Shown one piece after another: positions 20,143 through 64,000 of a DNA stretch of 64,000 nucleotides. The position numbers and the translations under genes are program-made. A model generated the notes under the pieces. It saw only the letters and a list, made by a program, of their open reading frames with translations. It had not been told where the DNA came from and did not search any database. Numbering within the stretch: position 1 is the stretch's first letter; the number at the start of each line of letters is the position of its first letter. The stretch is from Eledone cirrhosa (taxonomy: Eukaryota): NCBI GenBank assembly GCA_964016885.1, contig OZ024743.1, forward strand, positions 17,670,001 to 17,734,000. The letters run 5' to 3'.

Positions 20143-23100
20143 GTCCAGAAGTTGGGGAGAGAAGACTGGTCCGGTATTGGAATGGAGATGATCATCCAAA
20201 CCGACCAGGACTGCATCAGTGTTATTCCCGACGTAATAGACGTCGGGAATGGCTTACAACTTCAAATATATGTGGAAGGAAAGTGCCCATCGTGCTTCAA
20301 CTGTGGATCGAAGTCTCACCTCAGGTCTTCTGCCCACAGAAAATAACAAAGGCGAAAGTACCCCTCCTTCCAACGCCGGAACCGATGCCATCAGAAACAG
20401 AGCAGTCAGCGAAAAAGCCGGGAGCTTCTACAGAGTGAAGGAGGACTACGTCCGTGGCACCCACAGCGAAGCCACTGACAACAAAAAACAGCGGTGTCTG
20501 CTGCAGCAAGAGCAACAGTTGCACTAGCTGCACCTGTGCCAAGAACGACAGACCAGGCTCCACCACCACCAACAACAACAAAGACAAATGAGAGGATAGA
20601 ACTAATACACCTCCCTGACCTCTCACAGTCGGACATGGAGTACGAGGTGGCTGAGGAGTGGAAAACGGTTGTCAACAAAATGAACAAACGCAAAAATACC
20701 ACAGTTTCTCCCTCTAAAAGCGAGGGCAAAGAAAAAGTGGTAAGGGCTGGAAGGAGACTTGCAGCAACATCACTATCATCATCACAAACACCACCACCAC
20801 CAACAACCACACCACCATCAACATCACCAAAAACACCAACATCGCAAGCACAACAAAGTACACACACCCGACAGCAAGAAGAAAACAGCAACAACATCAC
20901 CCACCCACCAAATAAAAAGGTACACGGCCATAAATATCACACACAAAGGATTAATGGGATATATAAAACAGCACACATACATTACAGACTTAAATTACCA
21001 CGCCCTACAATCATCAAGAACATTACCTCTAAATAATACAATAGTCGAAATTAAACTGGAAGACTATAAACAATTAAAACAAAAATTCCCCAAATGCGTT
21101 GGTGAGTGATCCTTTCTAACTTACCACATTACCTCATCCAGCATGGCCATACTCAAAACAGGCAGTATAAATGTGTGTAAACCGGAGTCATCTTGGATGC
21201 AGGGGGACATGCTTAACGACTTCAGGTCAATAAAGGTAGATATGGTAACCATCAGCGAGACCAGAATCTTTGAAGCACGAGCTTTCGCACCGATCTTCGG
21301 CGGCAACGATGTATAGGCATCTCCCAGACGTCTGGGAACGGGGGGGGGGGGTGCTGTCTTTTTTCGGAGGGGCTTGGATCTCGCCATATGGGCCATCTTC
21401 CTGGACCCAGAAGGTAAGTCGATGGTACGTGACCGGCAGCGAAGGTAATGCTTTCAGGCTAGTAGCCGTCTACGCCTCAACAGGGGCAGGACGGCCAGAT
21501 TTCTTTCGACGGCTAGAGACTTTTCTTGGAACATCCCGCTCTTTAGTGTTAGTGGGCGATTGGAACGGTATCTTAGATGCACGCTTGGATTATGTGGGGT
21601 TAGTAGACAGAGGAAGAGGGTGTAAAAGCCTCAACAACAGCTCAGTCATTTTGAAATGTCTGACAGGTATTGATTGGATTATCCTAATGTATCAATGTAG
21701 ACATGGGCACACCGCATCGGGTCATCCAGATCGTATTTCTATAGAGAATTCTGTAGGGAAACAATAAGGCTAAAGTAGGTTGTCTACAATTTAAAGTAGT
21801 CGACCACGGACCACACATTCGTGATCTGTGAAATTGACTTAGATAGACTCCATAGGCAAGGGTCCTCCATAGGCAAGGGTCCTAATGCATCCTTCCAGCT
21901 CACGCAATGATTACAGAGAACGGATTAGTGAATTAGTTGAGCGTGCGTTGACGGGTGCGATCGTCAACAACGAGTGGTGCTTTACACTGAAAAGGGCTAT
22001 TAGAGTACAATCGATAAGGTTTAGCAAAGGAGTAGTGATTGAGGAAAAGAGAGTAGAGGGACAGTTAGTTAGAAAGATAAAAGAGGTGTTTAGCACAGGC
22101 ATCGCAACCGATGAGCTTGCGGCTAGATTGGCAGTCGATCAATTATTCAACGCAAAGCATGAAGGATGCGTTGTCAGGTCTAGAGCGTGTGCTCTGAGAC
22201 ACGAGGGATCGAAATCCGTTCAATGGGCCCGGGTGGTGGAGCCGCGACGTGGCAACCACAATTCGGTCTTTGCCTGATCAAAACGGGTGCATGTTGCTCG
22301 AACCCGAGCAGATGTGTGCGACTTTTCAACAGCACTTTGATCAATTGTTTGACGGACTGCCGCGGCTCTGGACGACCGCGGCGTAGTGTTGCGAAAAGCC
22401 GATAGCAGCTGGTGAAGTACGGGACGCGATGTCTAACTGTATGAGAATTTTTCGGCGTCCTCTTGGCAGATGTCTACTGCAACTGGCAGCAGAACGGGAG
22501 CATTCCCAACTGTGTGAGCCGCGGAGCGGTGGCGCTGCTGAGGAAAAATCCGAACAAGGAGGACGTTATTAACAAATTCAGGTCCATAACTCTGCTAGAC
22601 GGAGAGTTTGGCCAAGGTGTTAGCAAAGAGATTGGCGCTTGTCGTCGGTGATATGGTGGGAGAGGTGCAGACATGCGCCATCCCGGACTGATCCATCCAC
22701 GACAACCTCCATCTCAAGGCATTTGATAGGGTCAACCATCGGTACCTGGCTGCGGTCCTCGAGGCGGCAGGTTTCGGACCCATTTTAGGGGTTGGATCGT
22801 TGCGATGCACAGCGACATCTGTTCGATTGTGAGGGTGAATGGTCACCTGTCGCAGCCTTTCAGCATCATGCGCTCGGTCTGCCATGTTTTCCCCCTCACG
22901 TCCCTCTTGTACGTACTGGCCCTAGAGCTTTTACTACACAAATTAGAGCCGATGAGTGGGTTGGGGGTCCCACACCGACTGGGATGTGGGAGATCCGTGT
23001 CAGCTTACGTCGACGACGTCACCGTGGTGGTGTCGAGCACGTCAGGATGCTCGGCACTGCTCCCAAGGAATACGAAGCGGTGACAGGCACAAAGATCAAA

Positions 23101-24610
23101 CAGGAACATATGGTGGGCTTGGAACTCGGCACCTAGAGAGGCAAGTCCATGCCGTTCAACAGCGTCGTGGGGCGCTGGACGGAAGGACCGGTTAAATTGC
23201 TTGGGGTCTGGTTCGGTCCGGACCTCCAGATGGAGAAAAACTGGAGCGAGGCGACGAGCAGGGTGACCTCCCTCCCCCAGAAATGGGCCGACAGTAAGCT
23301 GTCTCTGAAAGGTCGGGCGGCGGTGGCGAATGCGTACATAGCGTCCGTCATCTGCCTCCGCCCAACTCTGACCAAAATGGAGCTCTTTCTCTTTCGCTTT
23401 TTTGGGAAGGGACATGCCCCTATAGTCAGACGATCCATTTGCTTTCAGCACCCGTTCCGTGGAGGACTAGGCATGCCGTGGCTGATGATGCGCAAATATG
23501 CGCTGAGGATGCGACATCTCTGGTGCTTCCTTGACGGTGAACAGGTGTGGTCGCCTTTTGTCATACGCGCTTTTCCCCAGCTTGTCTCCTTGACGGAGCT
23601 GCAGTCCTGGATCAGGAAAAGACCGAGTGTTAGCGCTTGAAAGCTGGAATGTCTCCAAGCGCTCACCGCCCTCTACCGGCTGGGCACTAGTATCGGTGGA
23701 ACATCCACCTCGTCATTCTATAGAGGGCTAGTGGAGGGAAAGAGCCACGACGTTCTCTGGGAGACCCTGGGCGTCGAGGACGATCAGCTGTTCGCTCTAT
23801 TCAAGAGAACTTTCAGACCGGGGCCTATGGACAACTTCCAGAAATTCCTGGTCTGTAAGTGTTACCGGGGAGCGTTGCCGGTTTCGGTAAGCTCTACAGG
23901 AACGGAGGTGCTGTCAGCCGAGCCTGTCCGAGATGCGCGCAGGACGACGAAACCGTCCTGCACCCACTCGTCTAGTGCCCGAGGATTGCTGACTTGTGGA
24001 GCTATGTCGAATAGCTGCTGTCGAGTGTAGGACGGATCCGGTTTTCGACTGAGTCCATTGTGCAGATAGCCCCGCCATCCTCCTTTAAAGAGGAGGAATG
24101 GCAGGCAGTTTTCATCTGCCTGGTGGCCATGGATGGCGAAAGAGATTGCGTGGTGGACAAGATTGAAATGTTGAAGACGGTCACTTTCCTCTCCGACCAA
24201 TCCCTGATTAGCTTTTTCATGTTTCACTTGAAGAGGAAAATCAGGGTGGAGAGTCAAGTGCTGTCTTCTAGTAAGTTTGTTGAAAGGTGGGTGAAAGTGG
24301 CGAGGGTGGTCCGCGTGAACGGGCCCGCTCTGAGTATACGCCTGTAGACTGAGGAGGGGAAAAGTGAGAGCGGGCGCTTTCCCTGGTGGTCAGGGTGGCC
24401 GTGTTCTTTTGTGTGGGTTTCACCACGAGTGACCCTCGGAGGTTTCCCCCTTCTTGGGGAATTTTTGTTGTTTGAATTTTTCTGGATTTCTAGCCCGAAT
24501 TTGTAATAAACTGTTTACCCGACAAAAACCCACGTTGTGTTGTCCTGTAATATTATTTGCCGTCTCTAATGTTTTTCTTCGTGTCAACCCTTGTGGCCAA
24601 TAAAGCCACC
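20143..24610 (+). mobile_element. Tx1-clade LINE, divergent older subfamily, 5' truncated within ORF1, degenerate
   Basis: ORF1 pieces (EDWSGIGME, CFNCGSKSHL); ORF2 pieces from 21143 (GDWNGILD, KLLGVWFGPDL); AATAAA followed by (ATT)n 24611-24639. Confidence 0.9.
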
Positions 24611-24639
24611 ATTATTATTATTATTATTATTATTATTAT

Positions 24640-27390
24640 AGTTGCATTTAACTTGCTTTATGTTCATACGAGTTATCACCAAGTCACAACCAGTGACCTC
24701 AAGAGACAACAAGGTCCGCCATGTTCAAGAAAGAACATACATACACACACATGCATCTTTAGGTGTTTAGACTTGTGATGTACTTATATTGACATAATCT
24801 TCCTTAGTATATGGGCAGTTCCCATTAGTACTATCTTTTGTATTTCTCCTATACGCGGGTTTCCTGGGATTTGCGACAAGTAATCATTATACCCCTTAGA
24901 TATCATTCCTAGAGCGCCTACAACCACTGGTATTGTTTTAGTTCTCAATTTCCACATTTTTCCAATTTCTATCTCCAGGTCCTTATTCTTGCTAAATTTT
25001 TCAAATGCTTTTATAGATACATTGTTGTCTATTGGAACGGACATATCAATTAGCATGCATACTCTCTTTTGAAAGTCCTTCAGTATTATATCAGGTCAAG
25101 TTGCATCTATTTTTCGGTCCGTTTGGACGTTAAAGTTCCACAAGATTGCGATGTGATATTTTTCAAGTACGGGAGGTGGTTGATTCTTCCACCAATTCTT
25201 TTGATGGGGAAGGTTAAAATACTTATACATTATCCAATGTATGTATTGTGCAGTTCTGTCATGTCTGTTTAAGTATTCGGTTGGAACTATAGGACTGCAC
25301 ATTGAAATTATATGATCAATGGTCTCTGGTTGTTTTTTACATACACGACATAATGGCTTGCATCCATTTTTTATTATGTTGACTTGGTAATATTTTGTTG
25401 GCAGACACTGATCTTGTGCTGATATAATCAGTCCTTCAGTCTCCGATTTCAGTCCAGAGGATGCCAATCACTGATGGGTTAAAGTGTTGTCAACATCAGG
25501 ATTGTTAGCTCTTTTGGGGTATTTTCTATGCAGAGGCTTTTCTTGCCATTTTGTTAGCGAGTTTCTGTAGCAGTTCTTTCTTTGCAGTTACTTTTACCTG
25601 CTTTGCTTTTTCTGTGTTTTCCATTTCAGCAGTAAATGGGAATTCTGAAATTTGTAGTCCATTACTTTATCTTTCTGCATCTTTTGTAATGGAGTATGAT
25701 CTTTTGATGCTTTCGTGTTTCAAAACGAGTTTGATCAACCAATCATGTGATTCCCTTAGATATGCAGATAATCCAATTGTTGCAGATTTCGACTCAATAT
25801 CTAACTGGATTAACCCGCGTCCTCCTTCTTTCCTAGGGAGACATATTCTATCTGTATCTGCCTTAGGGTGATGCATTCAGTGCATGGTTAAGAATTTTCG
25901 AATTTTTGTATCGAGCCTACGGATTTCTGTGCTTGACCAGTTGATGACATTGTAACTGTAGGTTACTACTAGTATGGCTGGCGTGTTTATGGCATCGATC
26001 CTATTCCTTGTATTCAATTCCGTTCTTAAGATTGCTCTTACTCTGCGGTAGCATTCCTTCCTTATCATGTCCCTCATTGTCGAGTGCTTGATTCCGTCTC
26101 CTTCACAAACACCTAGATATTTGTAAGTTTTTTCCTGATCAAGTTATCTTATCACATTCCCCCGATCAAGATAAACGTCTGAAATTTTCAGCAGCTTTCC
26201 TATGGTGAACGTTGCTTTGGCGCATTTATCTAGTCCAAACTCCATTTTAATGTCATCACTGCACTGCTCCACAGTGGATAATAGCCCTTGCAATTGTTCA
26301 TCATTTTTTGCAAATGGTTTCAGGTCATCCATGTAGAACAAGTGATTAATGGTTTTGTCATAAGTGAGTGGTGACTTTAGCCGATGCTTAATAGATATGA
26401 TTTACATCAGTAAAGTTTAGTTTGTTCGTGATGATAATGTTTTTGAGAATTATGTTAACCTTGTGTATTATCTTTTGGTTCTGTTTGAGTTCTGGATGTT
26501 AAGGAGGGTGTCTCGTTCCCCCATGTCAGATTCTTTCATTTTCATCCATTCGATCATAATTTCATCCTTCAAGTTAGCAAGTTCATTCTCATTCATTTCT
26601 TTATCATTTAAGATCTCATTGTTTTCATTTTGAGTTTTATCTTGAGCATGCACTCCCTCCACTTTTTTCGACCCTTCTTTAATTAGTCCTGTTGTCAGTG
26701 ATTCCGCCCCAACCCTGGGATTCGAAGTGTTACAATTTACCCTGTTTTCACTGACACATGTTTCATTTTCCCTTCGCTGACTTTGTGCTAATAGCTTGAT
26801 CTGATCAATTTCTATATAAGTTAGTAACATTTTTTTAACAATATTTTTTCGTATATTGGCTAGTTTGTTACTGTCAATATAGCCTCTGTTTTCGGGATGT
26901 TTCGTTTTACAGTTGATATATGTCTGTTCAGTATTCGATATATTTGATTGGTAGTACATGGCAGTGTAGAAAGCCTCAACGACTTCTTTATTGTCTTCTC
27001 TTGACCATTTTTCTCTCTTTTTCTTTGGTTTTCTTGGTGGTGAGCATGGACGACCAACAGTAGGAGTATTCCGGTTATGGGAGGTCTCCAGCTCCGAAGT
27101 GATGGGAAGGTTTGAACCATTAGCTGATTTTTCGACCCCAGTCTGGTTCCTCTCTGAGGGACGCGGCCCTTTTTTACCCGGGTGACGGCCGATCCGGTAT
27201 GAGATTTTATCATTAGACATTTACTTTATTTTGTCGAGTTTTATCCTTATCCGCCAAGGGGTAATCATTTCGAGTTACCACTTCTTGAACGAGTGTCAAC
27301 CAAGACTAGAGAGGTTGTCCTCTCCTAGAGACACGGCTATTCCCCGCCGGCCGCCATCTCGGTAATTCTTGGTCACGGGGTTTTCTTTTT
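24640..27390 (-). mobile_element. R4/Dong-type element, family B, reaching the 5'UTR, with a ~1.2 kb internal deletion
   Basis: FYMDDLK (RT), CRVC...HIISMC zinc finger, RHD, K.F.K..DL.IEI (RLE); N-terminal ORF 26468-27220 with REKWSREDN. Confidence 0.9.
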
Positions 27391-27427
27391 TGTTGTTTTT
27401 AAAAACAACCAAAACCTCTCCATGTAT

Positions 27428-30400
27428 CACGCTGGGACTGTGTGGGATTAGAGGATAGGGTAGGAGGATGCAAGAGCCTCACCAACCTGCTCAGGCGTTT
27501 TGAACTGTCTGACAGGTACCGATTGGATTTCCCGAATGTGCCAATGTGGACTTGGACAAATCGCATAGGGTCATACAGATCATATCTAGATAGAGTATTT
27601 TGTAGAGAAATAGATAGGTCTAGCATAGGCTGTCCACAATTCAAGATAGTCGGCTACACGGACCACAAATTCGTGATCTGTGTACTGGACTTAGATAGGC
27701 TTCATAGACGAGGACTCGGCTACTGGAAGCTAAACACCTCCTTACCAGCGCGCACGGCCTACAGAGACCGCATTAGCGAACTAGTTAAGCGGGCGTTGAC
27801 GGGGGCCATCGTCAACAACAAGTGGTGGTTTGCTCTGAAAAGAGCAATTAGAATAGAGTCCATTAGGTTTAGTAAGGCTTTAGCAATAGAGAAAAATAGA
27901 GCAGAGGGAGAATTAGTTAGAAAATTAGACGTGGCGCTTAGCAAAGGCATCGCGACTGACGTACTTGCGGCGAAATTGGCCCTTGACCAATTCTTCAATG
28001 CAAAGCACGAAGGCTGCGTTGTCAGAGCTAGGGTGCGTGCTCTCAGACATGAGGGGGCGAAAGTCGTTCAATGGGCCCGAGTGGCGGAACGCATCGTGGC
28101 AACAAAGCCACGATCCGGTCTTTGGTGGACCACGACGGGCGCATGGTACTCGATCACAGGCAAATGTGTGAAGCTTTTCAGCGACACTTCGCTCAAATGT
28201 TCGGGGGCAGTGGCGGGCCGGATCGAGGGATGGACTTTAGTGTCTACCTCGACGGACTGCCGCGGCTTTCGGCCACTGAGGCGGAGTGTTGCGAAAAGCA
28301 GATAACAGCCGCTGAAGTACGGGAGGCAATGGCTAGCTGCACAAAGGGTAAATCGCATGGTTTGGATGGTCTGCCCTGTGAACTTTACGTACATATGCCA
28401 GACTTGTTCGGAGGCCTCTTGGCGGACGTCTACTGCAACTGGCAACAGAACGGGAGAATTCCCAGCTCTGTGAGCCGAGGAGCTGTGGCGCTGCTGAGAA
28501 AGGATCTGAACAAGGGGGATAACATAGATAATTTTAGGCCCATAACTCTGCTAAACCTAGAGTTCGAGATTTTGGCCAAGGTGCTAACAAAGAGGTTGGC
28601 GCTTGTCGTTGGTGGTCTGGTGGGAGAGGCGCAGACATGCGCCATTCCCGACAGATCCATCCACGACAACCTCCACCTCATGCGATACATCGTAGAGAGG
28701 GTAGCTAGGAAACTTGGCACGGGTGGGTCCTTGATCAATTTAGATCAGACGAAAGCTTTCGATAGGGTCGAACATCGTTACCTAGCGGCAGTCCTGAAGG
28801 CGGCTGGCTTTGGGCGCGTCTTCAGAGGCTGGATCGCTACCATGCACAGCGACATCTGCTCTGTGGTAAGAGGGAACGGTCACCTTTCGGAACCGTTCAA
28901 CATCATGCGCTCGGTCCGCCAAGGATGTCCCCACTCGTCCCTCATGTACGTATTGAATCTCGAGCCATTACTGCACAAACTGGAGACGTTGAGGGGGATC
29001 CCGCGCGAATAGGATGCGGAAGAACGTGTCAGCATATGCGGACGATGTCACCTTAGTGGTGTCGAACTCCAAACACATCGTGGCGATCGACACTACACTA
29101 AGAGAATACGAAGCGGTGACAGGAGCAATGATCCACCAGGAAAAGTCAGTGGGCCTGCAGCTCGGCACCTGGAGGGGCAGGTCCATGCTGTCCAACAGCG
29201 TCGTTTGGCGCTGGATGGACGGACCAGTTAAATTGCTCGGGGTCTGGTTCGGTCCCACTCCAGACGGACAAAATCTGGGACGAGGTGATGAGCAGGGTGG
29301 CTTCTCTCACCCAGAAATGGGCCGAGAGGAAGCTATCCCTGAAAGGTCGAGCGGAGGTGGCTAACGGGTATATCGCGTCCGTCATCTACTATCGCCTGAC
29401 CGTCGTACCTTGTCCTAAGCCCCGCTTGACTGCGCTGGAGCGTTTGCTCTTTCGCTTTTTGTGGAAGGGACGTGCTCTGGTGGTCAGGCGATCCATCTGC
29501 TGTCAACACCCGCTACGTGGAGGGCTGGGAATGCCGTGGCTGATGATGCGCAGAAACGCGCTCTGGCTACGACATCTCCACCTCTTCCTCGACGGTGATC
29601 AGGTGTGGTCTCCGTTTGCTAGACACGTCTTTCCCCAGCTCGTCTCCTTGACGAAGCTGCAGTCCTGGGCCATGCGAAGACCGAGAGGGAGCGCTTGGAG
29701 ACTGGAATGTCTTCAGGCGCTCAAAGCCCTCGACCAATCGGCAATGTGATCGGTGGAAACTCCACCTCGGCGTTCTATAGAGGATTAGTGGAGGGGAAGA
29801 GCGACGACGTACTTGGGGAAACTCTAGGCGTCGACGAAAATCAACTAGCCAATCTCTTCGGAAGAACTTTCGGGCCAGGGCCTATGGACAACTTCCAGAA
29901 ATCTCTGGCCTGGCAGTGCTACCGAGGAGCCTTGCCAGTTCGGGATAAACTCTGCAGGCATGGAGGTGCCGTCAGCCGGGCATGTCCGAGATGCGCGCAG
30001 GGCGACGAAACCGTCCTGCACGCACTCGTCCAGTGTCCGAGCATTGCTGACTTGTGGGTTTATGTCGAACACCTGCTGTCACGTGTGGGACGGATCCGGC
30101 TAGCAGCTGAGTCGATCGTGAGGATGCCCCGCCCTCTTCCTTTAGCCGGAAAGGACAGGCAGTTTTTATCTGTCTGGTGGCCATGGCGAAAGAGATAGTA
30201 TGGTGGACACGTTTGAAAGGGCTGAAGACGAGCACTTACTACTTCGGATATGCCTGGATTAACTTTTTCAAATTTCATTTGAAATGGAAAATCAGGGTAG
30301 AAAGGGAAGTGCTCTCTTCCCAGCATTTTGTTGAAAGATGGGTGAGAGAGGCAAGAATGGCCCGAGTGAATGGGCCTACTCTGAGTATGTGTCTGTAAAT

Positions 30401-30648
30401 TAAAGGTGGAAAACTGGGAGAGGGCACTTGCCCCTGTGGTCAGGGTCATTGTGGCTTTTTAATGGGCTTTCTCCACCAATGTCCCTCGGAAGTTTCCCCC
30501 TTATTGGGGAATGTTTTCATTGTTCTATTATTACATCCTCTGTTTCTTGTTTTTATTACACGCAGAAATGCCCATTTGTGCAGCCCTGTATTGTCCTGCA
30601 CTTTCCTTAATGTCTACTTTATGTAAACCCTTGTGGTTAATAAAGAAA

Positions 30649-30650
<2 letters not shown>
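27428..30650 (+). mobile_element. Tx1-clade LINE, 5' truncated in the endonuclease, frameshifted
   Basis: ORFs 27442-30398 match the intact ORF2; 3'UTR followed by (ATT)n 30651-30683. Confidence 0.95.
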
Positions 30651-30683
<33 letters not shown>

Positions 30684-30891
30684 GGCGACCTACGTAGTAA
30701 ATCGTATCATCGTGAGCTCCGCAAAGGTTTGTTATTTCCGTTTGTTAAAAAATTGCCATTTATGGAAAATTTTATTGTTAACTGTTTATAAGCACACATA
30801 CATTGTTTTCCGAAAAGGACACCCAAAAAGATTGGGGCCTTGTGCCCAACATTTTAACTTTTATTATTATCAAAAAATTTCTTTGGAAAAA

Positions 30892-32884: not shown

Positions 32885-32918
32885 GTGGTCTTTCCCATCG
32901 TTTCCACTCCTTTTCAAC

Positions 32919-42234: not shown

Positions 42235-42236
<2 letters not shown>

Positions 42237-45812: not shown

Positions 45813-45847
45813 GTGGTCTTTCCCATCTTTTCCACTCTATTTTAAAC

Positions 45848-49267: not shown

Positions 49268-49535
49268 ACTAAAGGTGGAAAACTGGGAGAGGGCACTTGC
49301 CTTGGTGGTCAGGGTCATTGTGGCTTTTTACTGGGCTTTCTCCACAAATGTCCCTCCGAAGTCTCCCCCCTATTGGGGAATTTTTCATTGTTATTTTCAT
49401 TGTTATTTTTGTTACATCCTCTGTTTTTGTTTTTTTACACGCAGAAATGCCCATTTGTACCGTCCTGCATTGTCCTGCACTGTCCTTAATGTCTACTTTA
49501 TGTAAACCCTTGTGGTTAATAAAGAAATCATTATT

Positions 49536-52500: not shown

Positions 52501-53621
52501 CTGATGATGCGCAGGCACGCGCTCAGGCTACGACATCTCCACCTCTTCCTCGACGGTGATCAGGTGTGGTCGCCGTTTGCTAGACGCGTTTTTCCCCAGC
52601 TCGTTTCCTTGACGGAGCTGCAGTCCTGGGTCAAGCGAAGACCGAGAGGGAGCGCCTGGAGACTGGAATGTCTTCAGGCGCTCACAGCCCTCGACCAATC
52701 GGGCAATGTGATCGGTGGAAACTCCACCTCGGCGTTCTATAGAGGATTAGTGGAGGGGAAGAGCGACGACGTACTTGGGGAAACTCTAGGCGTCGACGAA
52801 AATCAACTAGCCAATCTCTTCGGAAGAACCTTCGGGCCGGGGCCTATGGACAACTTCCAGAAATCTCTGGCCTGGCAGTGCTACCGAGGAGCCTTGCCAG
52901 TTCGGGATAAACTCTACAGGCATGGAGGTGCCGTCAGCCGGGCATGTCCGAGATGCGCGCAGGGCGACGAAACCGTCCTGCACGCACTCGTCCAGTGTCC
53001 GAAAATTGCTGACTTGTGGGTTTATGTCGAACACCTGCTGTCGCGTTTAGGACGGATCCAGCTATCATCTGAGTCTATCGTGAGGATTGCCCCGCCCTCC
53101 TCCTTTAGCCGGGAAGGGCAGGCAGTTTTTATCTGTCTGGTGGCCATGGCGAAAGAGATAGTATGGTGGACACGTTTGAAAGGGCTGAAGACGAGCACTT
53201 ACCTCTTCGGTGATGCTCTGATTGACTTTTTCAAATTTCATTTGAAAAGGAAAATCAGAGTAGAGAAGGAAGTGCTCTCTTCCCAGCATTTTGTTGAAAG
53301 ATGGGTGAGAGAAGCAAGAATGGCCCGAGTGAATGGGCCGACTCTGAGTATATATCTGTAAACTAAAGGTGGAAAACTGGGAGAGGGCACTTGCCTTGGT
53401 GGTCAGGGTCATTGTGGCTTTTTACTGGGCTTTCTCCACAAATGTCCCTCCGAAGTCTCCCCCCTATTGGGGAATTTTTCATTGTTATTTTCATTGTTAT
53501 TTTTGTTACATCCTCTATTTTTGTTTTTTTACACGCAGAAATGCCCATTTGTACCGTCCTGCATTGTCCTGCACTGTCCTTAATGTCTACTTTATGTAAA
53601 CCCTTGTGGTTAATAAAGAAA

Positions 53622-53623
<2 letters not shown>
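49536..53623 (+). mobile_element. Second young Tx1 copy, 5' truncated in late ORF1, head-to-tail with the previous copy
   Basis: Starts at the equivalent of 45441 after only ATTATT; ends in (ATT)n 53624-53677. Confidence 0.96.
49942..53361 (+). CDS. Tx1/L1-clade ORF2 (1139 aa, intact)
   Basis: Same motifs; about 8 aa differences from 45848-49267 counted by eye. Confidence 0.97.
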   Translation: MTSLRIGSINARGLGSSWKQGHLLNDLRSLNIDVVAISETRISEARAFAPIFGGYDVYASPSRPGSGGGVAVLFRRGLDLAIRAIFLDPEGKLVVLDVTSGDGQAFRLVAVYAPTGAGRPDFFRRLETFLGTSRSLVLVGDWNGILDARWDCVGLADRGGGCKSLTNLLRRFELSDRYRLDFPNVPMWTWTNRIGSSRSYLDRVFCREIDRSSIGCPQFKIVSYTDHKFVICVLDLDRLHRRGPGYWKLNASLPARKAYRDRISELVKRALTGAIVNNKWWFALKRAIRIESIRFSKALAIEKNRAEGELVRKLDEALSKGIATDVLAAKLALDQFFNAKHEGCVVRARVRALRHEGTKAVQWARVAEARRGNKATIRSLVDHDGRMLLDPGQMCEAFQRHFAQLFGGSGGPGRGMDFSVYLDGLPRLSATEAKCCEKPITAAEVREAMTGCTRGKSPGLDGLPYELYVQMPDLFGGLLADVYCNWQQNGRIPSSVSRGAVALLRKDPNKGDNIDNFRPITLLNTEFKILAKVLAKRLALVVGGLVGEAQTCAIPDRSIHDNLHLMRYIVERVAREPGTGGSLINLDQSKAFDRVDHRYLAAVLRAAGFGPVFRGWIAAMHSDICSVVRVNGHLSEPFNIMRSVRQGCPLSSLLYVLTLEPLLHKLETLRGVPRELGCGRSVSAYADDVTVVVSNAKHIEAIGTTLREYEAVTGAMINQEKSVGLQLGTWRGRSMPSNSVVGRWTDGPVKLLGVWFGPDLQTDKNWDEVTSRVASLTQKWAERKLSLKGRAEVANAYIASVICYRLTVVPCPKPRLTALERLLFRFLWKGRAPMVRRSICCQHPLRGGLGMPWLMMRRHALRLRHLHLFLDGDQVWSPFARRVFPQLVSLTELQSWVKRRPRGSAWRLECLQALTALDQSGNVIGGNSTSAFYRGLVEGKSDDVLGETLGVDENQLANLFGRTFGPGPMDNFQKSLAWQCYRGALPVRDKLYRHGGAVSRACPRCAQGDETVLHALVQCPKIADLWVYVEHLLSRLGRIQLSSESIVRIAPPSSFSREGQAVFICLVAMAKEIVWWTRLKGLKTSTYLFGDALIDFFKFHLKRKIRVEKEVLSSQHFVERWVREARMARVNGPTLSIYL

Positions 53624-53677
<54 letters not shown>

Positions 53678-53679
<2 letters not shown>

Positions 53680-53861
53680 AGTTGCATTTATCTTCTTTTA
53701 TATTCATACGAGTTATCACCAAGTCACAACCAGTGACCTCAAGAGACGACGAGGTCCGCCATGTTCAAGAAAGAACATACATAATCACACATGCATCTTT
53801 AGTGTTTAGACTTGTGATGTACTTATATTGACAGAATCTTCCTTAGTATATGGGCAGTTCC

Positions 53862-53862
<1 letters not shown>
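53678..53862 (-). mobile_element. Dong family B very short 3' fragment
   Basis: 3'UTR plus last codons; (ATT)n flanks. Confidence 0.9.
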
Positions 53863-53892
<30 letters not shown>

Positions 53893-53904
53893 GTTGTTGT
53901 TATT

Positions 53905-54396
53905 CCTTGAATCTCAGTCATTGATGTTGGTTAACTGGAAAGTCCGTTGGATTGAATATCAAGCCACTACCTGCAGCCTCAGATATTCAGGACGTATCGG
54001 AGGGTTCTTGCTGTTCCAAGCAAGCATGCCTTTTGAAGCGTTCCAAAAAGCGTGAAGGGGCCGATTTTCTTTATCCATCCCTGGAAACTTTTGGAGATAG
54101 TCCCCAGTGCGCCTATGACAATCGGGATCACTTTGACTTCATGGCAGTTCCAAATCCTTTTCACCTCCCACTTTAGATCCTGGTATCGGTTAATTTTCTC
54201 CCTCTCCTTCTCTTGCACTCTCGTGTCGAACGGGCAGGCCACATCCACAATCAGACACGTTCTTTTTTCTTTGTCCACAACCACCAGGTCAGGTCTATTG
54301 TGTTCCAGATTTTTGTCCGTCTGTATCCTAAAATCCCACAGCACCTTCACCTGATTGTTCTCCATCACCGCCTCTGGCCTATGCTCATACCATTTC
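53905..54396 (-). mobile_element. Dong family A 3' fragment
   Basis: RLE ORF 53979-54437 (RPDLVV, DVACPFD, KINRYQDL). Confidence 0.93.
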
Positions 54397-54432
54397 ATTA
54401 TTATTGTTATTATTATTATTATTATTATTATT

Positions 54433-57400
54433 TGCATTTATCTTGCTTTATGTTCATACGAGTTATCACCAAGTCACCACCAGTGACCTCAAGAGACAAC
54501 AAGGTCCGCCATGTTCAAGAAAGAACATACATATTCACACATGCATCCTTAGTGTTTAGACTTCTGATGTACTTATATTGACAGGATCTTCCTTAGTATA
54601 TGGGAAGTTCCCATTAGTACAATCTTTTGTATTTCTCCTATACGCGGGTTTCCTGAGATTTGCGATAAGTAGTCGTTATACCCCTTAGGTATCATTCCCA
54701 GAGCGCCTACAACCACTGGTATTGTTTTAGTTCTCAATTTCCACATTTTTCCAATTTCTATCTCCAGGTCCTTATACTTGCTAAATTTTTCAAATGTTTT
54801 TATAGATACATTCTTGTCTATTGGAACAGACATATCAATTAGCAAGCATACCCTCCTTTGAAAGTCCTTCAATATTATATCAGGTCTATGTGCATCTATT
54901 TTTCGGTCTGTTTGGATGCTAAAGTTCCACAAGATTGAGATGTGATCTTTTTCAAGTATGGGACGTGGTTGATGCTCCCAACAATTCTTTTGATGGGGCA
55001 GGTCAAAATGCTTACACATTATCCAATGTACGTATTGTGCAGCTCTGTCATGCCTGTTTAGGTATTCGGTTGGAGCTATAGGACTGCACATTGAAATTAT
55101 ATGGTGAATGGTCTCTGGTTGTTTTTTGCATACACGGCATAATGGGCTGCACCCATTTTTTATTATGTTGACTTGGTAATATTTTGTTGGCAGACACTGA
55201 TCTTGTGCTGATATAATCAGTCCTTCAGTCTCCGATTTCAGTCCAGAGGATGCCAATCAATGATGGGTTAAAGTGTTGTCAACATCAGGATTGTTAGCTC
55301 GCTCTGGGTATTTTCCATACAGAGGATTTTCTTGCCATTTCTTAGCCAGTTTCTGTAGCAGTTCTTTCTTTGCAGTTACTTTTACCTGCTTTGCTTTTTC
55401 TGTGTTTTCCATTTCAGCAGTAAATGGGACTTCTGAAATTTGTAGTCCATTAGTGTATCTTTGTGCATCTTTTGTAATGGAATATGATCTTTTGGTGCTT
55501 TCGTGTTTCAAAACGAGTTTGATCATCCAATCATGTGATTCCCTTAGATATGTGGATAATCTAATTGTTGCAGTTTTCAACGCAATGTCTAACTGGATTA
55601 ACCCACGTCCTCCTTCTTTCCTAGTGAGATATATACTATCTATGTCTGCCTTAGGGTGATGCATTCTGTGCATGGTTAAGAATTTTAGGATTTTTGTATC
55701 GAGCCTACGGATCTCTGTGCTTGACCAGTTGATGACATTGTAATTGTAGGTTACTACTGGTATGGCAAGCGTGTTTATGGCATCGACCCTATTCCTTGCA
55801 TTCAATTCCGTTCTTAAGATTGCTCTGACACTGCGGTACTATTCCTTCCTTATCCCTTCCCTCATTGTCGAGTGCTTGATTCCGTCCCCTTCACAAACAC
55901 CTAGATATTTGTAAGTTTGTTCTAGATCAAGCTCTCTTATCACGTTCCCCCGATCAAGATTAATGTCTGAACTCTTCAGCAGCTTTCCTCAGGTGAACGT
56001 TGCTTTGGCGCATTTATCCAGTCCAAACTCCATTTTAATGTCATCACTGAACTGCTCCACAGTGGATAATAGCCCTTGCAATTGTTCATCAGTTTTTGCA
56101 AATAGTTTCAGGTCATCCATGTAGAACAGGTGATTAATGGTTTTGTCATAGACTCTATATCCATGTTTTGTTTCATTGAGCATTTTACTTAATGTTATAT
56201 GTGCGATGCAGAATAAAAGCGGTGATAAAGATTCACCCTGAAAAACTTCACAATTAATATTAACTTCTCCAGCTTCCAGTGATTTTGTTTCACTATTCAA
56301 AAGTAGTGTCGTTTTCCATGTCTTCATACTGAATGACAAAACCTTCCTGACAACGGGGGATATTTTGAAAATCTCTAAACATTTTTCAATCCAACTGTGT
56401 GGCAAACTATCGAATGCTTTTTTTATAATCTATCCAAGCAATCGATAGATTTTTGTGTCTATTATGACACTCTTCCAGTATCATTTTGTTAACCAGAAGC
56501 TGATCCTTACAGCCATATGAGCCTCGTTTACTCCCTTTCTGCTCAATGGGAAATAGGTCATTTGTTATCAGGTGGTCATATGTGTATTCAGTTAGGACTG
56601 ATGTTAAAATGTTATACATTGTGGTCAAGCAGGTTATCGGTCTGTAATTTTTGGGATTGTTTGTCTCATCATTCTTCGGTAGCAGGAATGTAATGCCGTT
56701 AACTAGCCATGATGGTATATTTTCTGGCTCCTTAACTATTTCATTGTAAAGTTGGGCTAACAGCTCATGAGACACTGTGAAGGCATTTATCCAAAAGTTT
56801 TGTATTTTGTCTTTTCCTGGGGATTTCCATTTGCTGGTTTTTCTTAGAGCCAAGCGCAACTGTTCAACTGTTATATTTTCCCATATTTGTTCCTCAAGGT
56901 GAGCTGTATCTTTCATTTGTCTGTCTATCCATGTTATGAACTTTTTCTTCGGCCCAGATCTTTTCCCAGAATTCTTGCACTTCCTCCTTGGGTGGTATTG
57001 ATTTAGCAGTTATTGTTGACTTACCAATTTTTCTGTAGAAGTTTCTTTGGTTGTTTATGATCATATTATTGTCCTTATAGAATCTAGATCGTTTTTCAAA
57101 GCGCCTTATACGAGCAGCTTTGGCCGACACTTTTTGCTTGATTGTTTCTATCAGCATGTCTATGTCACATGTTGATCTTATACTGTACTTTGTTTTCAAT
57201 TTTCTAAGTTTAGTTTGTTTAACATGTTCACCTACTTTATAGTTTGTTAACATTTCTATGTCAGATCGTAGAAGGTTTATTTGGCGATTGATGATATCTT
57301 GCGAAGTAGATTTCTTGTGGGAATTCCTTTGTTTTTTCATCTTCACTCCACATAAGTGAGTGGTGACTTTAGCCGATGCATAATAGAGATGATTTAAGTC

Positions 57401-57600
57401 AGTAATGTTTAGTTTGTTTGTGATAATAATGTTTTTGAGAATTATGTTAGTCTTGTGTATTATCTTTTGGTTCTGTTTGGAGTTCTGGATCTTAGGGAGG
57501 GTGTCTCGTTTCCCCATGTCAGATTCTTTCATTTTCATCCATTCGATAATAATTTCATCCTTCAAGTTGGCAAGTTCATTCTCATTCATTTCTTTATCAT
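54433..57600 (-). mobile_element. Dong family B, long 5'-truncated copy, frameshifted
   Basis: ORFs 56894-57643, 56407-56916 (NYRPITCL), 55989-56405 (FQGESLSPLLF, YMDDLKLF), 55257-55805 and 54573-55256 (zinc finger plus RLE). Confidence 0.95.
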
Positions 57601-57626
57601 TTATTATTATTATTGTTATTGTTATT

Positions 57627-60600
57627 CCTTGAATCTCAGTCATTGATGTTGGTTAACTGGAAAGTCCGTTGGATTGAATATCAAGCCACTACCTGCAGCC
57701 TCATATTCAGGACGTATCGGAGGGTTCTTGCTGTTCCAAGCAAGCATGCCTTTTAAAGCGTTCCAAAAAGCGTGAAGGGGCCGATTTTCTTTAACCATCC
57801 CTGGAAACCTTTGGAGATAGTCCCCAGTGCGCCTATGACAATCGGGATCACTTTGACTTCATGGCAGTTCCAAATCCTTTTCACCTCCCACTTTAGGTCC
57901 TGGTATCGGTTAATTTTCTCCCTCTCCTTCTCTTGCACTCTCGTGTCGAACGGGCAGGCCACATCCACAATCAGGCACGATCTTTTTTCTTTGTCCATAA
58001 CCACCAGGTCAGGTCTATTGTGTTCCAGTTTTTTGTCCGTCTGTATCCTAAAATCCCACAGCACCTTCACCTGACTGTTCTCCATCACCGCCTCTGGCCT
58101 ATGCTCATACCATTTCTCAGAATGTGGTAGATTGTTTACTTTGCACAGGTGCCAGTGGATCACCCTGCCCATCACATCGTGTCTCCAGCCCTTATAGTGG
58201 GTCTGGGCTAGGTGTTTACACTCGGACACAATGTGAGCCACAGTCTCCTCACTCTCTCCACAGATCCTGCACAGTGGGCTAGCCTCCTCCTTGTAGATAT
58301 GGTGCTTAAACCACTTCGTTTTGAGGGCCTGCTCCTGCGCAGCCATTAGCATTCCTTCTGTAGCCTTTTTGAGGTCTCCTCTTCTCAACCAGTTCCATGT
58401 CTGTGGATCTCTAAATTCAGTTTTCTCAAAGAGGGTACTATGAAGGGATTTTCCCTTAAGGCTGCTCTTCCTCCTTGATGTTATTTCCTCCTTGGACATC
58501 CCCTGGCCTACTGTCCCCTCCTTCAGTACAGTTCTGAGCATTGGCTCCTTACTATAGGTCACGTATTTGTATAGGTTGTTTTTCTCCATCTGAACACAGT
58601 CCTCTATGCTGATAAGACCTCTTCCACCCTCAGATCTCCTTAGGTAGATGCTATCGACATCACTCCTCTTGTGGAACATGTTGTAGATAGTCAATAGCTT
58701 CCTAGTCTTCCTATCCATTTCTTTTTGTTCAGCAACATTCCATCTCAGAATTCCCGCACTGTACCTAATAATAGACACAGCTCGGGAATTTACTGCGCTT
58801 ATGGCATTTCTGCTGTTCAGATGTGACTTCAATACGCTCCTTACTCTCCGAATGTATTCAGTTCTTAACAATTCCTTCATTTTTTTGTTCTTTATGCCAT
58901 CAGCCTCCAGAACGCCCAAATACTTGTATCCTTCCTCAGAGTCAATTTCCTTTATCATCTCACCTGTTGGTATCTGGATCCCGTTACTTCTGCTCAACAT
59001 ACCCCTCTTCATCACAATGACTCCACATTTACCAATACCAAACTGCATACATATATCACTGCTGAAAATACGGACAGTGTCAACAAGCACATCCAACTCC
59101 TTCTCACTTTTCCCGAAGAGCTTAAGATCGTCCATGAAGAGGAGGTGATTGATGGTAAGCTCTCCCCTTCCCAACTTGTATCCTGCTCTCACTTTTCGCA
59201 GCATAATGGTCAAGGGCATCAGGGCAAGGACAAACAACTAAGGGGACAGGCTATCTCCCAGGAAGATACCTCTCTTGATCTTCACGCTTCCCAAGGATAC
59301 TCCAGTTGATGTCAACTCTGTCTCCCAGGACCCCATACTCCTGCCCAGCAACTGTCTGATGTTATCTGCCACCCTGAAGACCTCCAGGCTTTTGGTGATC
59401 CAGGAATGAGGCACCATGTCAAATGCCTTTCTGTAGTCTATCCATCCCATGGCAAGATCAGTGTGTCTCCTCCTGCAATTCCCCATTACCATCTTATCAA
59501 TAAGCAACTGGTCCTTTGTACCACGTGACTTCTTTCGGCATCCTTTCTGTTCGTCCGGTAACAAGTTGTTTGTGTGGAGGTGATGGTAGATTTCCTCAGA
59601 CACAATGCTCGTCAACAGTTTCCACATTACGGGCAGACATGTGATAGGTCTATAGTTGGTAACATCATTACCCTTGATTCGGTCTTTCATTATCAGAACT
59701 GTGGTACCTTTTGTCAACCACTCTGGCACCTCACCCGACACCAGCAGTCATTGAACATGGCCGTCAGCTTCGGGTGGAGGGATGTTAAATGTTTAATCCA
59801 ATACCCCTGCACACCATCTGGGCCTGGTGATTTCCAGTTGGTTAGTTTTTTGGCTTGCCCCTTAAGAGTTTCAACTGTGATACTCAAATCAGTCTGTTGT
59901 TGTGCCTTCTCACCGATCTCCCTCTGTACTGTCTCAATCCACCCTGCCTGGGCATTGTGTCTAACATCCTGCTCCCATATTCCTCTCCAGAATGTTTTAG
60001 CTTGTTCCGCCCCAGGGATCAAGTCGTTGCCTCTTTCTTTCCCCTCAAGCTGTCCAAACAGCATCTTCTGGTTGTTGTCGAACATGCGGTTCTGTTTATA
60101 CTGACTGACTCTGTTCTCGTATCGCCTGATTTTGGCACTATTTGCTACAATGCGTTACTTCAATTCCTCTATGATAATATTTAGCTTTTTACTCCTAGTT
60201 TTGTATTTTATTTCCAGTCTATTTTTAGTGCCTATGTTTTTTAGTGTCCCATTCAGTAGTGACTCAAGCTTTCCTATGTCATTTCTCATTTCCCCGATTT
60301 GCCCACTCAGACGCTTCTTCCACCACGGCTCTGCTCTTTCTTGTCTGTTGTTTCCTCTCGCTTTTATACCAAGTAGTTTCCTCACCGTATTTGCTGTTGC
60401 TTTGAGGATACTGTTGCACTGGTGAAGACTCCTCGCCTCAAGGTATGGGATGACTTTGTTTACCTTAGCTGTTGTTTCTTTTAACTTTTTCCTGTCTACA
60501 AATCTTAGGTTCATAGGTCTCCCACTATCATTGTTCAATTCATCTACCACTAGATTTAGGATGTCAACCGAATCTTGTCCTAGCCCGTCAGCATTCATCT

Positions 60601-62168
60601 CCTCAGTGGCCGTATCTCTGTTCCAGGTATTATTTATCTCAGTATTCAGATCATTGTCTGCTTCGGGTGGTTCCTCCGTTCTCAGGACCTCCTCACCTTC
60701 ATTTCCCACCGGCTCGCTTGTCTGGCATACTACACCCGCCATCTCCAAGCCATTCTCTCTGCTCAGTTCCTCCAGTTCCAGCTCGCTTATCCACCCATTA
60801 GTTCCTATTACCCGAGCCTGCCCGGCCAATTTTTGTTCATCTAATTTAAATAAACCAATCTCGTTCCAGATGTTATGCATCCGTCTCCTGTAGCCCCTCT
60901 CCTTGGGGTTACTTTTCAGGTAGCATTGCATAACAGTTCTATTCAATTCTTTCGTCCAGTTGGTTCTGGCCCCTTTCCTTCTTCTTCTTCCTCCAACGTC
61001 AGCAGTATTTAGTTGACAGTCAGGTTCCTGCTGCTGAGCCAGGGGGCACCTGTTGGGTGAGAGTCTGTCACATGACGTTCTAGTCTCCATTTCACCGTTA
61101 TTCGAACTGTTTATGTTCGATATTTAAACACTCTTATCGAGGATTGGCGAATGTATGTTTACATAGCCATCTGTGGATCCGCCATCCCACTTGGCCCTTG
61201 TGTGGCATTATCACCACGCTGTATACGAACACACATAAACAAACAAACACACGGGCAGAAAGGGCCCCAAAATTGAATAAGCATAAGTTTCATTGTCATG
61301 TAGTATTCGAATGTCTGACTTAGTTTTTGTTTTTTAAGTTTTACTTTTTCCCCCCTCTTCTCTGTCTGTCCGCCTGCTTCTCTCTTCATTCTTATTTTCT
61401 TTACGTTTTGGGGGTTTCTTTTTTTGTTTTTGTTTTTCTCTGTTTGTTTTTCTCGTTTTTTGCTGTTGTTGCTGTGCTGCTTTGGTTTTGTTGTTTGTTT
61501 TTTCTTTTTTCTTTTGAGTCTATCTATATATTTTGATGCCTTCCTCTTTTTTAGTAGTAGGGATTCTATAAGGGAAGAAGACGCACGAGGTGACGGAGGT
61601 CATGAAATCGCTCCCGTAAGTTTTGAATTTTTAACATATTTAAATCATTTGTGAAATAACAACTCTTAGTACAAATGCTACGTAAAGCACCCGGCTTGAG
61701 CCCCAAAAAATTCGGACCCAAAATATATTGGTATAAGGCTCAAATATTCAAATATTCAACTTTGTATTGTACACTGTATATCCCCCCACAAAAATGGCTA
61801 TAAATGGAAGAAGAATACCCCCCCCCCCCTCCTCTCCTCTGGCTACACTATATAGGACAGCTAAACTCACGAACACCAGAAACTAGATACACCACCCACC
61901 CCATCATCGGTGTACACTAAACACAACAGCATTTTCACCTTCACCGCCACCGCTCACTACGGCCATCATTACCACCACTATCCCATCACCGCCGCCACCA
62001 CCCCTTGACTCCTTCACTGCTGCTGCCACCGCTACAGCACCATCACTACAGTAATACGGTCGCATCACCGCCACCACTGCCTCGGTATCGACATCACCAC
62101 CACCACTGTCTCAGTATCGCCAGCGCCGCCAGCCTCCCACTTCTCCCTGCTGGCTGCTACTACTTCCA
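57627..62168 (-). mobile_element. Full-length Dong family A element with its 5'-most ~600 bp inverted
   Basis: ORF pieces 61090 to 57753; 61569-62168 is the reverse complement of ~830-1434; (ATT)n on both sides. Confidence 0.95.
57753..61090 (-). pseudogene. R4/Dong single ORF (Myb-like N-terminus, RT, CCHC, restriction-like endonuclease), few disruptions
   Basis: RTNWTKELN; NYRPITCL; [12 protein letters not shown]; FMDDLKLF; YKYLG; CRIC...HIVSEC; RHD; PDLVV..DVACP..K. Confidence 0.93.
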
Positions 62169-62169
62169 T

Positions 62170-62196
62170 ATTATTATTATTATTATTATTATAATA

Positions 62197-62229
<33 letters not shown>
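62170..62229 (+). repeat. (ATT)n spacer, representative of ~14 such tracts delimiting array members
   Basis: Tracts start at 1435, 24611, 30651, 36558, 40898, 42181, 43017, 43494, 49530, 53624, 53863, 54397, 57601 and 62170, all ATT on +. Confidence 0.98.
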
Positions 62230-64000
62230 GGCGACCTACGTAGTAAATCGTATCATCGTGAGCTCCGCAAAGGTTTGTTATTTCCGTTTGTTAAAAATTG
62301 TCATTTATGGAAAATTTTATTGTTACCTGTTTATAAGCGCACATGCATTGTTTTCCGAAAAGGACACCCAAAAAGATTGGGGCCTTGTGCCCAAAATTTA
62401 AACTTTTATTATTATCAAAAACATTTCTTTGAAAAAAATGGCTAATTCAACTCTGCACCAAACAGCTGAAAGCCTTCCTCACAAATTAACACCTCACACC
62501 GACACCACCATTGTAAATGTTACTACGTTTGCCAACACAAAAAAAAATATAAGCAGTAGCAATATTTTAAATTTGTCTCAGGCAGACATTCATTTCCCGC
62601 CATTACCAATGACTGCAGGTGTTAAAGCCTCCACCACCACCACCACCGCCACAACCGCCACCCCCACCACCACCGCGACAACAGAAACAAAAGAAGAAAA
62701 AAATAAATTAACTTGTGATGTCGAAATGAAATCAAGCAAAATGGACTCTTCCCCACCAAAGACGACTGACGTCAACACCACCACAACTGAAACTAAAATT
62801 AATATTAACACAAATAACGATAGCAATAACAACAACAATGACATTATAAAACCGACCCTCAGTTTCGCCAGAGTAGCAACACAGTTCGAAGCATTTACGG
62901 TAACTCAGGAGGATTTAGAAAATGCCAAACAAATGGTAAAGAAAGATGGGTAGAGGGTCAGCCTCATCCCCCCCACCTAATAAAATGGAGCATCGGCGCC
63001 TATGCACCGTGTCGTATAGAACAATAAATGTAAAATCGCGCCGAGTGGAACGGGCATCCGAGCCCCAAATCCAAAAAGTTTTGCGACATGTGTGGGCAAG
63101 AAAAACCCACATCAGACGTGGGCAAAAGTATGGAACCGTGGATGTGTTCTTTGAAACGCCAGAGGAGGCTAGAGAACACTCCATGGCCCCATTAAGAATT
63201 GACGACTTCACACTCGTCCCAAGCTATTGTGGCCAAAGACTCGTAAAGATCAGGGTGACCCACGTTCCACCGGCCATCGAAATTCCCTGGCTAATAGCGG
63301 CCGTCCTCTCCGGCATCGAAGCCAACACGAAAATAATAGCAATAGCAAAAGAAAAGCAGGAGAACTGGTCCGGATCTGGGATGGAGCTCCTGATCCAAGC
63401 GGACCAAAAAAGCATTGAGGAGATCCCAGAGGTAATAGAACCTCACTGACGGCAGCCACCTCAAGGTAATTGTCGAGGGCAGAAGACCTAGGTGTGTCGT
63501 TTGTGGTGAAGGAACCCACCTAAGGGCTTTCTGCCCTCGGGCTAAAAGGTTGAGGCCACCTCTCCTACCCATCCCAGTGACACAACCATCAACACCACCA
63601 GTAGCAGAGATGGCAGCAACAACTGTAGCAGCAACAACAGAAGCAACTATAACAGCAACAACCCCAGCAACAGTAGCAAAACGAACACCACTACCACCAC
63701 CAGCAAAACCAACACCACCACCACCCAACGCTTCAGAACTGGCACCAGCGCCTACTCCATCCACCACACCACAACCAAAACTAACGGCTGTGGGGGATTT
63801 TCTACTCCCGGGCCTATCACAACTGGAGACAGATTGTGACGACGAGGAGTGGGAAACGATATCCGGAAAAAAAAAAGAAACCAAAAAAGAAAAAATTCTC
63901 TTCCTTCCCCTCCAAAAACAAAATACAGAGGGAAAAAATAAATTAAGAAACAAAAAAGTTAGGACAGATATGCCACCATCCACACCAGCATCACCAACCC
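62230..64000 (+). mobile_element. Tx1-clade LINE 5' part (same subfamily as 30684), ORF1 disrupted, continues beyond the window
   Basis: Near-identical to 30684-32450. Confidence 0.95.

Follow-up and report, generated by a model that had tools for sequence, protein, structure and literature searches.

In the passages cited in this paragraph, Dong elements target TAA repeats in silkworm, mosquito and the snail Biomphalaria, Kibi targets TC and Koshi TTC (PMC3812793), and the targets given for Tx1 elements are TC, TTC, TTCC, TTTC and U2 (PMC4494074). SART and TRAS occupy the telomeric (TTAGG)n of Bombyx in opposite orientations and form arrays there (PMC10088271), Keno, a Tx1 element, and Utopia, which carries a restriction-like endonuclease (RLE), share the U2 small nuclear RNA genes (PMC4494074, PMC4640811; the RLE clades are treated in the latter), and a ribozyme like that of hepatitis delta virus (HDV) has been shown at the 5' end of Bombyx Dong and of R4 (PMC3774820). 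In cephalopods, Dong-R4 and L1-Tx1 expanded in coleoids (PMC8967140; PMC8869645 is a further paper in this comparison literature) and are among the recently active families of O. vulgaris, for which transposon hotspots are reported, with no target analysis in the passages cited (PMC13282606). Here we analysed a stretch of 64,000 nucleotides from Eledone cirrhosa, referred to as the window (positions 17670001-17734000 of contig OZ024743.1, here C4, in an assembly of 3.0 Gb), in which long interspersed elements (LINEs) resembling Tx1 and Dong are chained through (ATT)n tracts. We consider it highly probable that, across the genome, Tx1-like LINEs and two Dong-like families share the (ATT/AAT)n microsatellite and are oppositely oriented in it, with different strands primed and the tracts reused.

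Opposite orientation at one microsatellite

Comparing the window with itself and with single full-length genomic copies, we found that 15 LINE copies make up 95.6% of positions 20143-64000, six being Tx1-like copies with an apurinic/apyrimidinic-type endonuclease (APE) on the + strand and nine Dong-like copies with an RLE on the - strand. An earlier reading made from the letters of this DNA (the sequence-only reading) had 15 elements joined almost wholly through tracts reading ATT on +, and such a repeat is present at 13 of the 14 internal junctions, one of the 13 (49530-49535) being merely ATTATT. The exceptions are the left end at 20143, which has no tract, and the tract-less junction at 27400-27428, where the Dong 5' untranslated region (UTR) that is longer by 970 nt in other copies is missing; given that the UTR continues in those copies, we read this as a head-to-head junction over which a deletion later occurred. 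A triplet scan with a threshold of four or more perfect units revealed 13 ATT runs and no AAT run on + within 20143-64000, located at 12 junctions, and in the whole window 14 ATT-type runs and one AAT-type run (9588, outside the array). Tracts in 80 evenly spaced 10-kb stretches of the genome are balanced between strands (18 ATT, 21 AAT), indicating that the one-strand pattern of the array is not chance; the chance of 12 out of 12 junctions on one strand is about 2 x 0.5^12 = 0.0005. The rule that every Tx1 copy lies on + and every Dong copy on - stood for the 15 copies and failed for one piece: in the Dong copy at 57624-62168 the first 600 bp at the 5' end are inverted, so that 61569-62168 lies on +; the other copies are collinear. 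As had been stated, no element was seen to interrupt the body of another within 20143-64000, and the Dong copy at 24642-27400 carries an internal deletion, not an insertion. The copies are 65-99.5% identical to young references, in line with the array of several ages and families that the sequence-only reading had proposed.

Beyond the window the array extends as far as position 73081 or so (window numbering), and another of like polarity lies at about -17700 to 4001. At the right end of the latter, where the same rule had been read from the letters, (ATT)18 at 1435-1488 (+) indeed lies between a head of Dong-like family B (DongB; 1-1434, -) and a Tx1 head (1489-4001, +). Outside the arrays, a Tx1 fragment at 9915-10819 on the - strand, with an own-strand tail in which ATT turns into (GTT)12 (from 9864), has, over 9864-10819, the polarity opposite to the arrays on both sides. 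Since this fragment lies on - with a tail on its own strand, it is the tract, and not the strand of the window, that the polarity rule refers to.

For the rest of the genome, element ends were searched in five sets, the best 40 being scored of 269-1612 candidates each and 30 loci taken, with the window's own loci left out of the tally; a sixth set (head of Dong-like family A, DongA) matched an internal part of the 5' UTR and was excluded. Among these best matches, the young Tx1-like subfamily TxA has ATT at 29/29 3' ends and ATT upstream of 29/29 5' ends. DongA 3' ends carry AAT at 29/29, and DongB ends carry AAT at 28/29 on the 3' side (the remaining one has both) and at 28/29 on the 5' side (the remaining one has a GAA repeat). 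A neighbouring element was found within 150 nt for 98 of the 145 flanks with no violation of polarity, the pairs comprising 25 Tx-Tx and 50 Dong-Dong on the same strand and 23 Tx-Dong on opposite strands. Most weight falls on the 5' flanks, for which a 3' tail is no explanation; heads that lack a neighbouring Tx1 or Dong element within 150 nt (TxA 13/29, DongB 12/29) are still preceded by the repeat. After deduplication, the 5' flanks of full-length copies read ATT at 52/53 Tx and AAT at 41/45 Dong, and those of truncated copies ATT at 8/9 Tx and AAT at 76/95 Dong.

Because best matches are biased to young copies, an unselected sample was added. Its 799,800 bases hold 39 tracts of at least five units, 18 with a library match and 16 at element ends, and all 16 of these follow the polarity. 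Mixed arrays were met by chance in sample stretches L216, L227 and L247, and comparable arrays are present on other contigs. Element neighbours were found for 16/29 young TxA heads and 16/39 unselected tracts, so that no preference for arrays is needed beyond the extra tracts that they hold. The claim that a single microsatellite holds both clades, each in its own orientation, is thus borne out by the tallies, by 98 of 98 pairs and by 16 of 16 sample tracts, and flanks and orientation are not random genome-wide, as at the 5' ends of TxA (29/29) and DongB (28/29). Together, the data show that the pattern is genome-wide and not that of one special locus.

A very abundant short interspersed element (SINE) ending in AATTATT (L228:1951-2170; about 75 motif matches in L201-L280; window near 16270, -) has what we take to be a tRNA-like head. 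Its heads stand after ATT tracts, oriented as Tx1 is, in at least 12 cases, and its tails seed tracts used by Tx1 and Dong.

Assignment of the + elements to the Tx1 clade is, from their sequence, well supported but not proven. Open reading frame (ORF) 2 matches PF03372 (Exo_endo_phos), PF00078 (RVT_1) and PF13966 (zf-RVT) above cut-offs, with L1 ORF2p as best PDB match (E 2e-52), and in other copies a 715-aa ORF1 with a CxxCxxxxHxxxxC knuckle overlaps ORF2; a separate ORF1 with a CCHC knuckle is typical of Tx1. Specific target sequences are frequent in this clade though not universal, and here (ATT)n precedes 52 of 53 full-length heads. Named homologs of ORF2 carry the similarity-based names 'Transposon TX1 149 kDa' or YTX2 at about 295-312 bits and human L1 ORF2p scores 181 bits, the two scores coming from different databases and query spans. 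Among the matches listed, Argonauta hians supplies the named homolog nearest to the APE-type protein (73% identity). The - elements encode a single frame of 1141 aa with a reverse transcriptase (RT) carrying FMDD, a CxxC...HxxxxC finger and RHD and RPD...DV motifs, and their best PDB matches are R2 proteins, including the C-terminal nuclease stretch. The layouts are thus APE, RT and zf-RVT in the Tx1-like and RT, CCHC and PD-D motif in the Dong-like elements. No named R4 or Dong reference occurs among the 120 homologs listed for the Dong-like protein, and the putative Dong/R4 label rests on domain layout and target.

The 5' 390 nt of DongA and DongB are 77% identical (L192:7340-7710 against window 1040-1434) despite a protein identity of only about 36-45%, which suggests that 5' UTRs were exchanged. 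Rfam identified no ribozyme family in the Dong heads searched (L197, L192), only low-score matches to AT-rich repeats, and a descriptor of HDV-like ribozymes, anchored at the first 6 bases, gave 0 matches on three Dong heads, a search from which a long-linker variant could escape. A candidate SINE at 825-1434 was dropped, being the Dong head. A similar motif (GCTCCCGTAAG, GCTCTGTAAG), ending in a splice-donor-like GTAAG, recurs 30-50 nt into the heads of the Dong families and of several Tx1 subfamilies (window 43515-43560 and 40845-40897; downstream head in L287) and may be an internal promoter element that they share. A Tx1 lineage that is sister to TxA, with an ORF2 identity of about 67%, keeps the AATAAA end and has (TATC)n tails and tandem arrays of its own (L260:2358-8000, L218:4435-6500, L215:3835); tails of (TATC)n and (ATT)n in such close relatives likely reflect a target switch.

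Growth of the arrays and alternative explanations

In target-primed reverse transcription the priming nick lies on the strand complementary to the element RNA, and under this model the primed strand would be AAT in the case of Tx1 and ATT in that of Dong. AATAAA stands 6 nt before the tract in TxA and in the old subfamily TxC, so the Tx1 RNA likely ends inside an (AUU)n tail; this tail would pair with the nicked AAT strand and the (UAA)n tail of Dong RNA with the other. Each insertion would turn one tract into two that later copies may use. Because one tract would become two per event, arrays would grow at tracts that were hit early, and the seed tract would fix the strand for every member. 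At its outer joint the inverted Dong head shows microhomology to the target, the RNA reading CATTAT and the tract TATTAT, as would be expected in this one case from twin priming by the cut (TAA)n strand; structures of this kind are best known from L1.

Self-propagation had been proposed from the letters, and one instance is the TxA copy at 49536-53623, which differs at 1 of 4088 positions from a copy on contig C7 and at 19 of 4088 from its neighbour at 43515-49529. Being closer to the C7 copy, it is a separate, very recent insertion into the tail of the older neighbour, and local tandem duplication as its source is ruled out by the same figures. Differences of 3-20 nt separate six TxA units that lie side by side on C4, and some of these units are nearer to copies on other contigs. 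Elsewhere on C4, a 39-bp variant tract, ATTATTTTT(ATT)10, stands on both sides of the first of two adjacent units, although these units differ by 67 nt; the tract was duplicated around a new copy, as the claim that insertion leaves new target tracts would have it. From variant units, the target-site duplication measures 21 bp or more in one array and 33 bp or more in a second, the exact length being unreadable in pure repeats. Before full-length TxA heads, perfect ATT runs have exactly six units in 15/62 cases, one to five in none and zero in two, both with GTT at the junction; this floor, which truncated copies do not keep, fits a duplication of at least 18 bp or an RNA starting with (AUU)6. 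On C4:358020001-358060000 (L301-L304), at least seven young TxA copies stand head-to-tail over 39 kb, with the same GTT(ATT)6 ending in four spacers.

Several points weigh against reading the arrays as repeated, strand-specific insertion. A stricter scan of truncated copies, window included, found at least 6 nt of repeat at only 11/20 Tx and 58/79 Dong junctions; some of the misses are alignment breaks inside elements, while at others a genuine junction has no tract. In L141, L174 and L192 a full-length Dong head follows (GAA)n, often in compound TAA/GAA tracts. Two of the 18 library matches in the unselected sample (L209, L279) are Dong-like in the wrong orientation; they were set aside as internal fragments, one being a SINE head. 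The genome-wide counts are not fully independent, since they cover best matches only and include some tandem neighbour loci. Two tandem TxA units on C28 are identical over 6 kb (0 differences), and among three on C7 the differences amount to 1-2 nt. Insertion alone does not call for such identity, and some units may have been added by unequal crossing-over, as multimers or in assembly. An empty allele was not observed, and the target-primed model is the source of the predicted nick sites and strand choice.

Strand choice itself could be made in two ways. The endonucleases may not be strand-selective and may cut TpA steps or the repeat on both strands, with polarity arising where the repeat at the 3' end of the RNA pairs with one of the nicked strands, an account to which we give somewhat less than an even prospect. 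Array growth would then be unchanged, but the proposal in the sequence-only reading that two endonuclease classes nick opposite strands would be wrong in detail. TpA recurs every 3 bp on both strands of (ATT/AAT)n, so that RNA-tail pairing could set the polarity. Pairing is also favoured by TxA junctions that are in ATT phase at both ends, by AATAAA just before the tract in TxA, TxB, TxC and the (TATC)n sister, which makes it likely that the RNA carries the repeat, and by the Tx1 polarity of the abundant AATTATT-tailed SINE at tracts. However, the target of specific elements without long terminal repeats is mainly set by the endonuclease (cited passages of PMC4494074 and PMC3812793), and the six-unit floor before full-length heads suggests a structured recognition site.

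A broader proposal would make the octopod (ATT)n a self-renewing niche in which Tx1, two Dong lineages and a tract-seeding SINE split the strands, trade 5' sequence while stacked in arrays (the 77%-identical head of the two Dong families and the GCTCCCGTAAG-like motif of Tx1 and Dong heads) and build convergent arrays with mutual antisense RNA, a route to founder-less dual-strand clusters of PIWI-interacting RNA (piRNA); as a whole this seems to us unlikely. That the host keeps or favours the arrays, as dual-strand small-RNA loci resembling piRNA clusters or as safe havens, we hold to be quite improbable. Three tail-to-tail and three head-to-head Tx1/Dong joins are present, from which read-through would be expected to yield antisense to the other clade, but targeting alone accounts for the pattern and neighbour rates are similar for young heads and unselected tracts; a host function is not needed.

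Very improbable, in our view, is that the tracts are merely 3' tails and that the arrays were assembled later by unequal crossing-over or deletion between tracts of like polarity. Recombination of like-stranded tracts would give the same polarity rule, and the identical or nearly identical tandem units on C28 and C7, with equal spacers, are what it would leave; yet the repeat precedes heads that have no neighbour, head-to-head tracts exist (43494, 62169, 1435) and adjacent units often come from different sub-lineages. An assembly artefact, with repeats mis-joined at low-complexity tracts, is scarcely credible, for although the junctions are of low complexity and a few identical tandem units occur elsewhere, the 15 copies differ in divergence and truncation points, the most similar pair differs at 19 sites with one partner matching another chromosome better, and the same junction types recur in the evenly spaced sample stretches.

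Elements and tracts along the window

All tracts described in this section read ATT on the + strand. The array begins with an old TxC copy that has lost its 5' end (20143-24610, +; 65-78% identical to young TxA) and ends in AATAAA and an ATT tail. The (ATT)9 tract at 24611-24639, identified in the triplet scan, joins it tail-to-tail to a DongA copy (24642-27400, -; 92-95% to a full-length copy) that has lost 1.2 kb internally as well as its first 970 nt; it aligns to reference positions 973-2013 and 3223-4895. Joined to it without a tract is a 5'-truncated Tx1-like copy with a decayed ORF2 (27428-30650, +; 94% to TxA; RVT_1, zf-RVT), followed head-to-tail, across (ATT)11 at 30651-30683, by a full-length, frameshifted Tx1-like copy of subfamily B (TxB; 30684-36557, +; Exo_endo_phos). 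An imperfect (ATT)n tract (36558-36597) then leads tail-to-tail into an older full-length DongB copy (36598-40897, -; 85-88% to young DongB; RVT_1).

A run of Dong/Dong junctions follows. (ATT)9 at 40896-40924 precedes a 5'-truncated DongB (40926-42179, -; 94%), (ATT)18 at 42180-42235 a 5'-truncated DongA (42239-43016, -; 89%) and (ATT)8 at 43017-43040 another (43047-43493, -; 96%). The (ATT)7 tract at 43494-43514 lies between two 5' ends and is therefore the 3' tail of neither element. To its right stands a full-length young TxA (43515-49529, +; 99.2% to another copy), in which ORF1, with the CCHC knuckle, has an in-frame stop at 44310-44312 and ORF2 is open (APE, RT, zf-RVT). Four public sequencing runs compared over 43000-44200 show both elements present in other samples; the comparison skips the tracts and bridges no junction. 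The minimal tract ATTATT (49530-49535) separates this copy from the very recent 5'-truncated TxA in its tail (49536-53623, +), which has an open ORF2 frame of 1195 aa.

Beyond (ATT)18 at 53624-53678, a tail-to-tail junction, the remaining Dong copies comprise a short DongA 3' end (53682-53862, -; 95%), a 5'-truncated DongB (53902-54396, -; 98%), a 5'-truncated DongA of 3.2 kb (54432-57600, -; 95%) and a full-length young DongB (57624-62168, -; 98.8% in the body and 97.7% in the inverted head) whose inverted 5' 600 bp are twin-priming-like. They are joined by (ATT)10 plus GTT units (53863-53901), by (ATT)n (54397-54431) and by a short ATT/GTT tract (57601-57623). Last, (ATT)20 at 62169-62229 lies between the 5' part of this Dong copy and the head of a TxB copy, the 5' part of which (62230-64000, +) continues beyond the window.

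The gap between the two arrays contains a PIF1-like helicase fragment, likely of a Helitron (6543-7667, -). At 11438-13067 we found 2.7 copies of a 468-bp tandem repeat, part of which also occurs in inverted orientation at 11438-11840; an (AT)n run of 225 bp comes after it.

Comparison with described systems

Every ingredient of these arrays has a precedent: targeting of (TAA)n by Dong, microsatellite targeting by Tx1 and the sharing of one repeat on opposite strands by SART and TRAS are known, and the arrays are well explained by known chemistry. What appears new, not having been found in the literature searched, is an (ATT)n Tx1 lineage that has an interstitial, renewable target in common with Dong, the two using opposite strands, and builds mixed arrays. 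The search returned neither a Tx1 targeting (ATT)n nor mixed Tx1/Dong arrays; its scope did not extend to Repbase Reports, to Kojima and Fujiwara 2004 or to the supplements and target figure of PMC4494074, which may hold such a family.

The rule is simple and testable, and it bears on how two very active LINE groups of octopuses pile up into transposon hotspots. There are young Tx1 copies in which both ORF1 and ORF2 are open and young Dong copies whose single ORF is open, so APE and RLE enzymes can be compared on one substrate, a comparison that would separate endonuclease specificity from RNA-primer pairing. The (TATC)n sister lineage and TxA form a close pair for mapping a switch in target specificity. 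As a practical consequence, ATT microsatellite markers in octopods often lie at LINE ends.

Among the known elements, Dong of Bombyx, DongAg and DongBg of the snail Biomphalaria are like the Dong-like elements here in their single-ORF RT with RLE and in sense-strand (TAA)n at both ends. They differ in that here two families with 36-45% protein identity share the target and a 77%-identical 5' segment, and in that long mixed arrays are formed with an APE element. The 5' ribozyme described for Bombyx Dong was not found at the Dong-like heads here by Rfam or a simple descriptor. Kibi in (TC)n, Koshi in (TTC)n and crocodilian Tx1 in (TTCC/TTTC)n, as the cited passages describe them, share the two-ORF APE-RT and sequence-specific microsatellite insertion, whereas the target here is (ATT)n, which those passages do not list for Tx1 and which an RLE clade also uses, on the other strand. 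SART and TRAS, again according to the cited passages, are likewise two families in one short repeat, in opposite orientation and in arrays; however, both are R1-clade APE elements at telomeres, and here an APE and an RLE element meet at an interstitial microsatellite with roughly 150,000 genomic (ATT/AAT)n sites (extrapolated from 39 per 800 kb).

R1 and R2 share the 28S rDNA, and both this pair and Keno with Utopia resemble the present case in that unrelated endonuclease classes use one multicopy target. Their targets are genes that insertion destroys or limits, whereas the (ATT)n target is regenerated by insertion, and for this reason chains of 15 or more copies build up.

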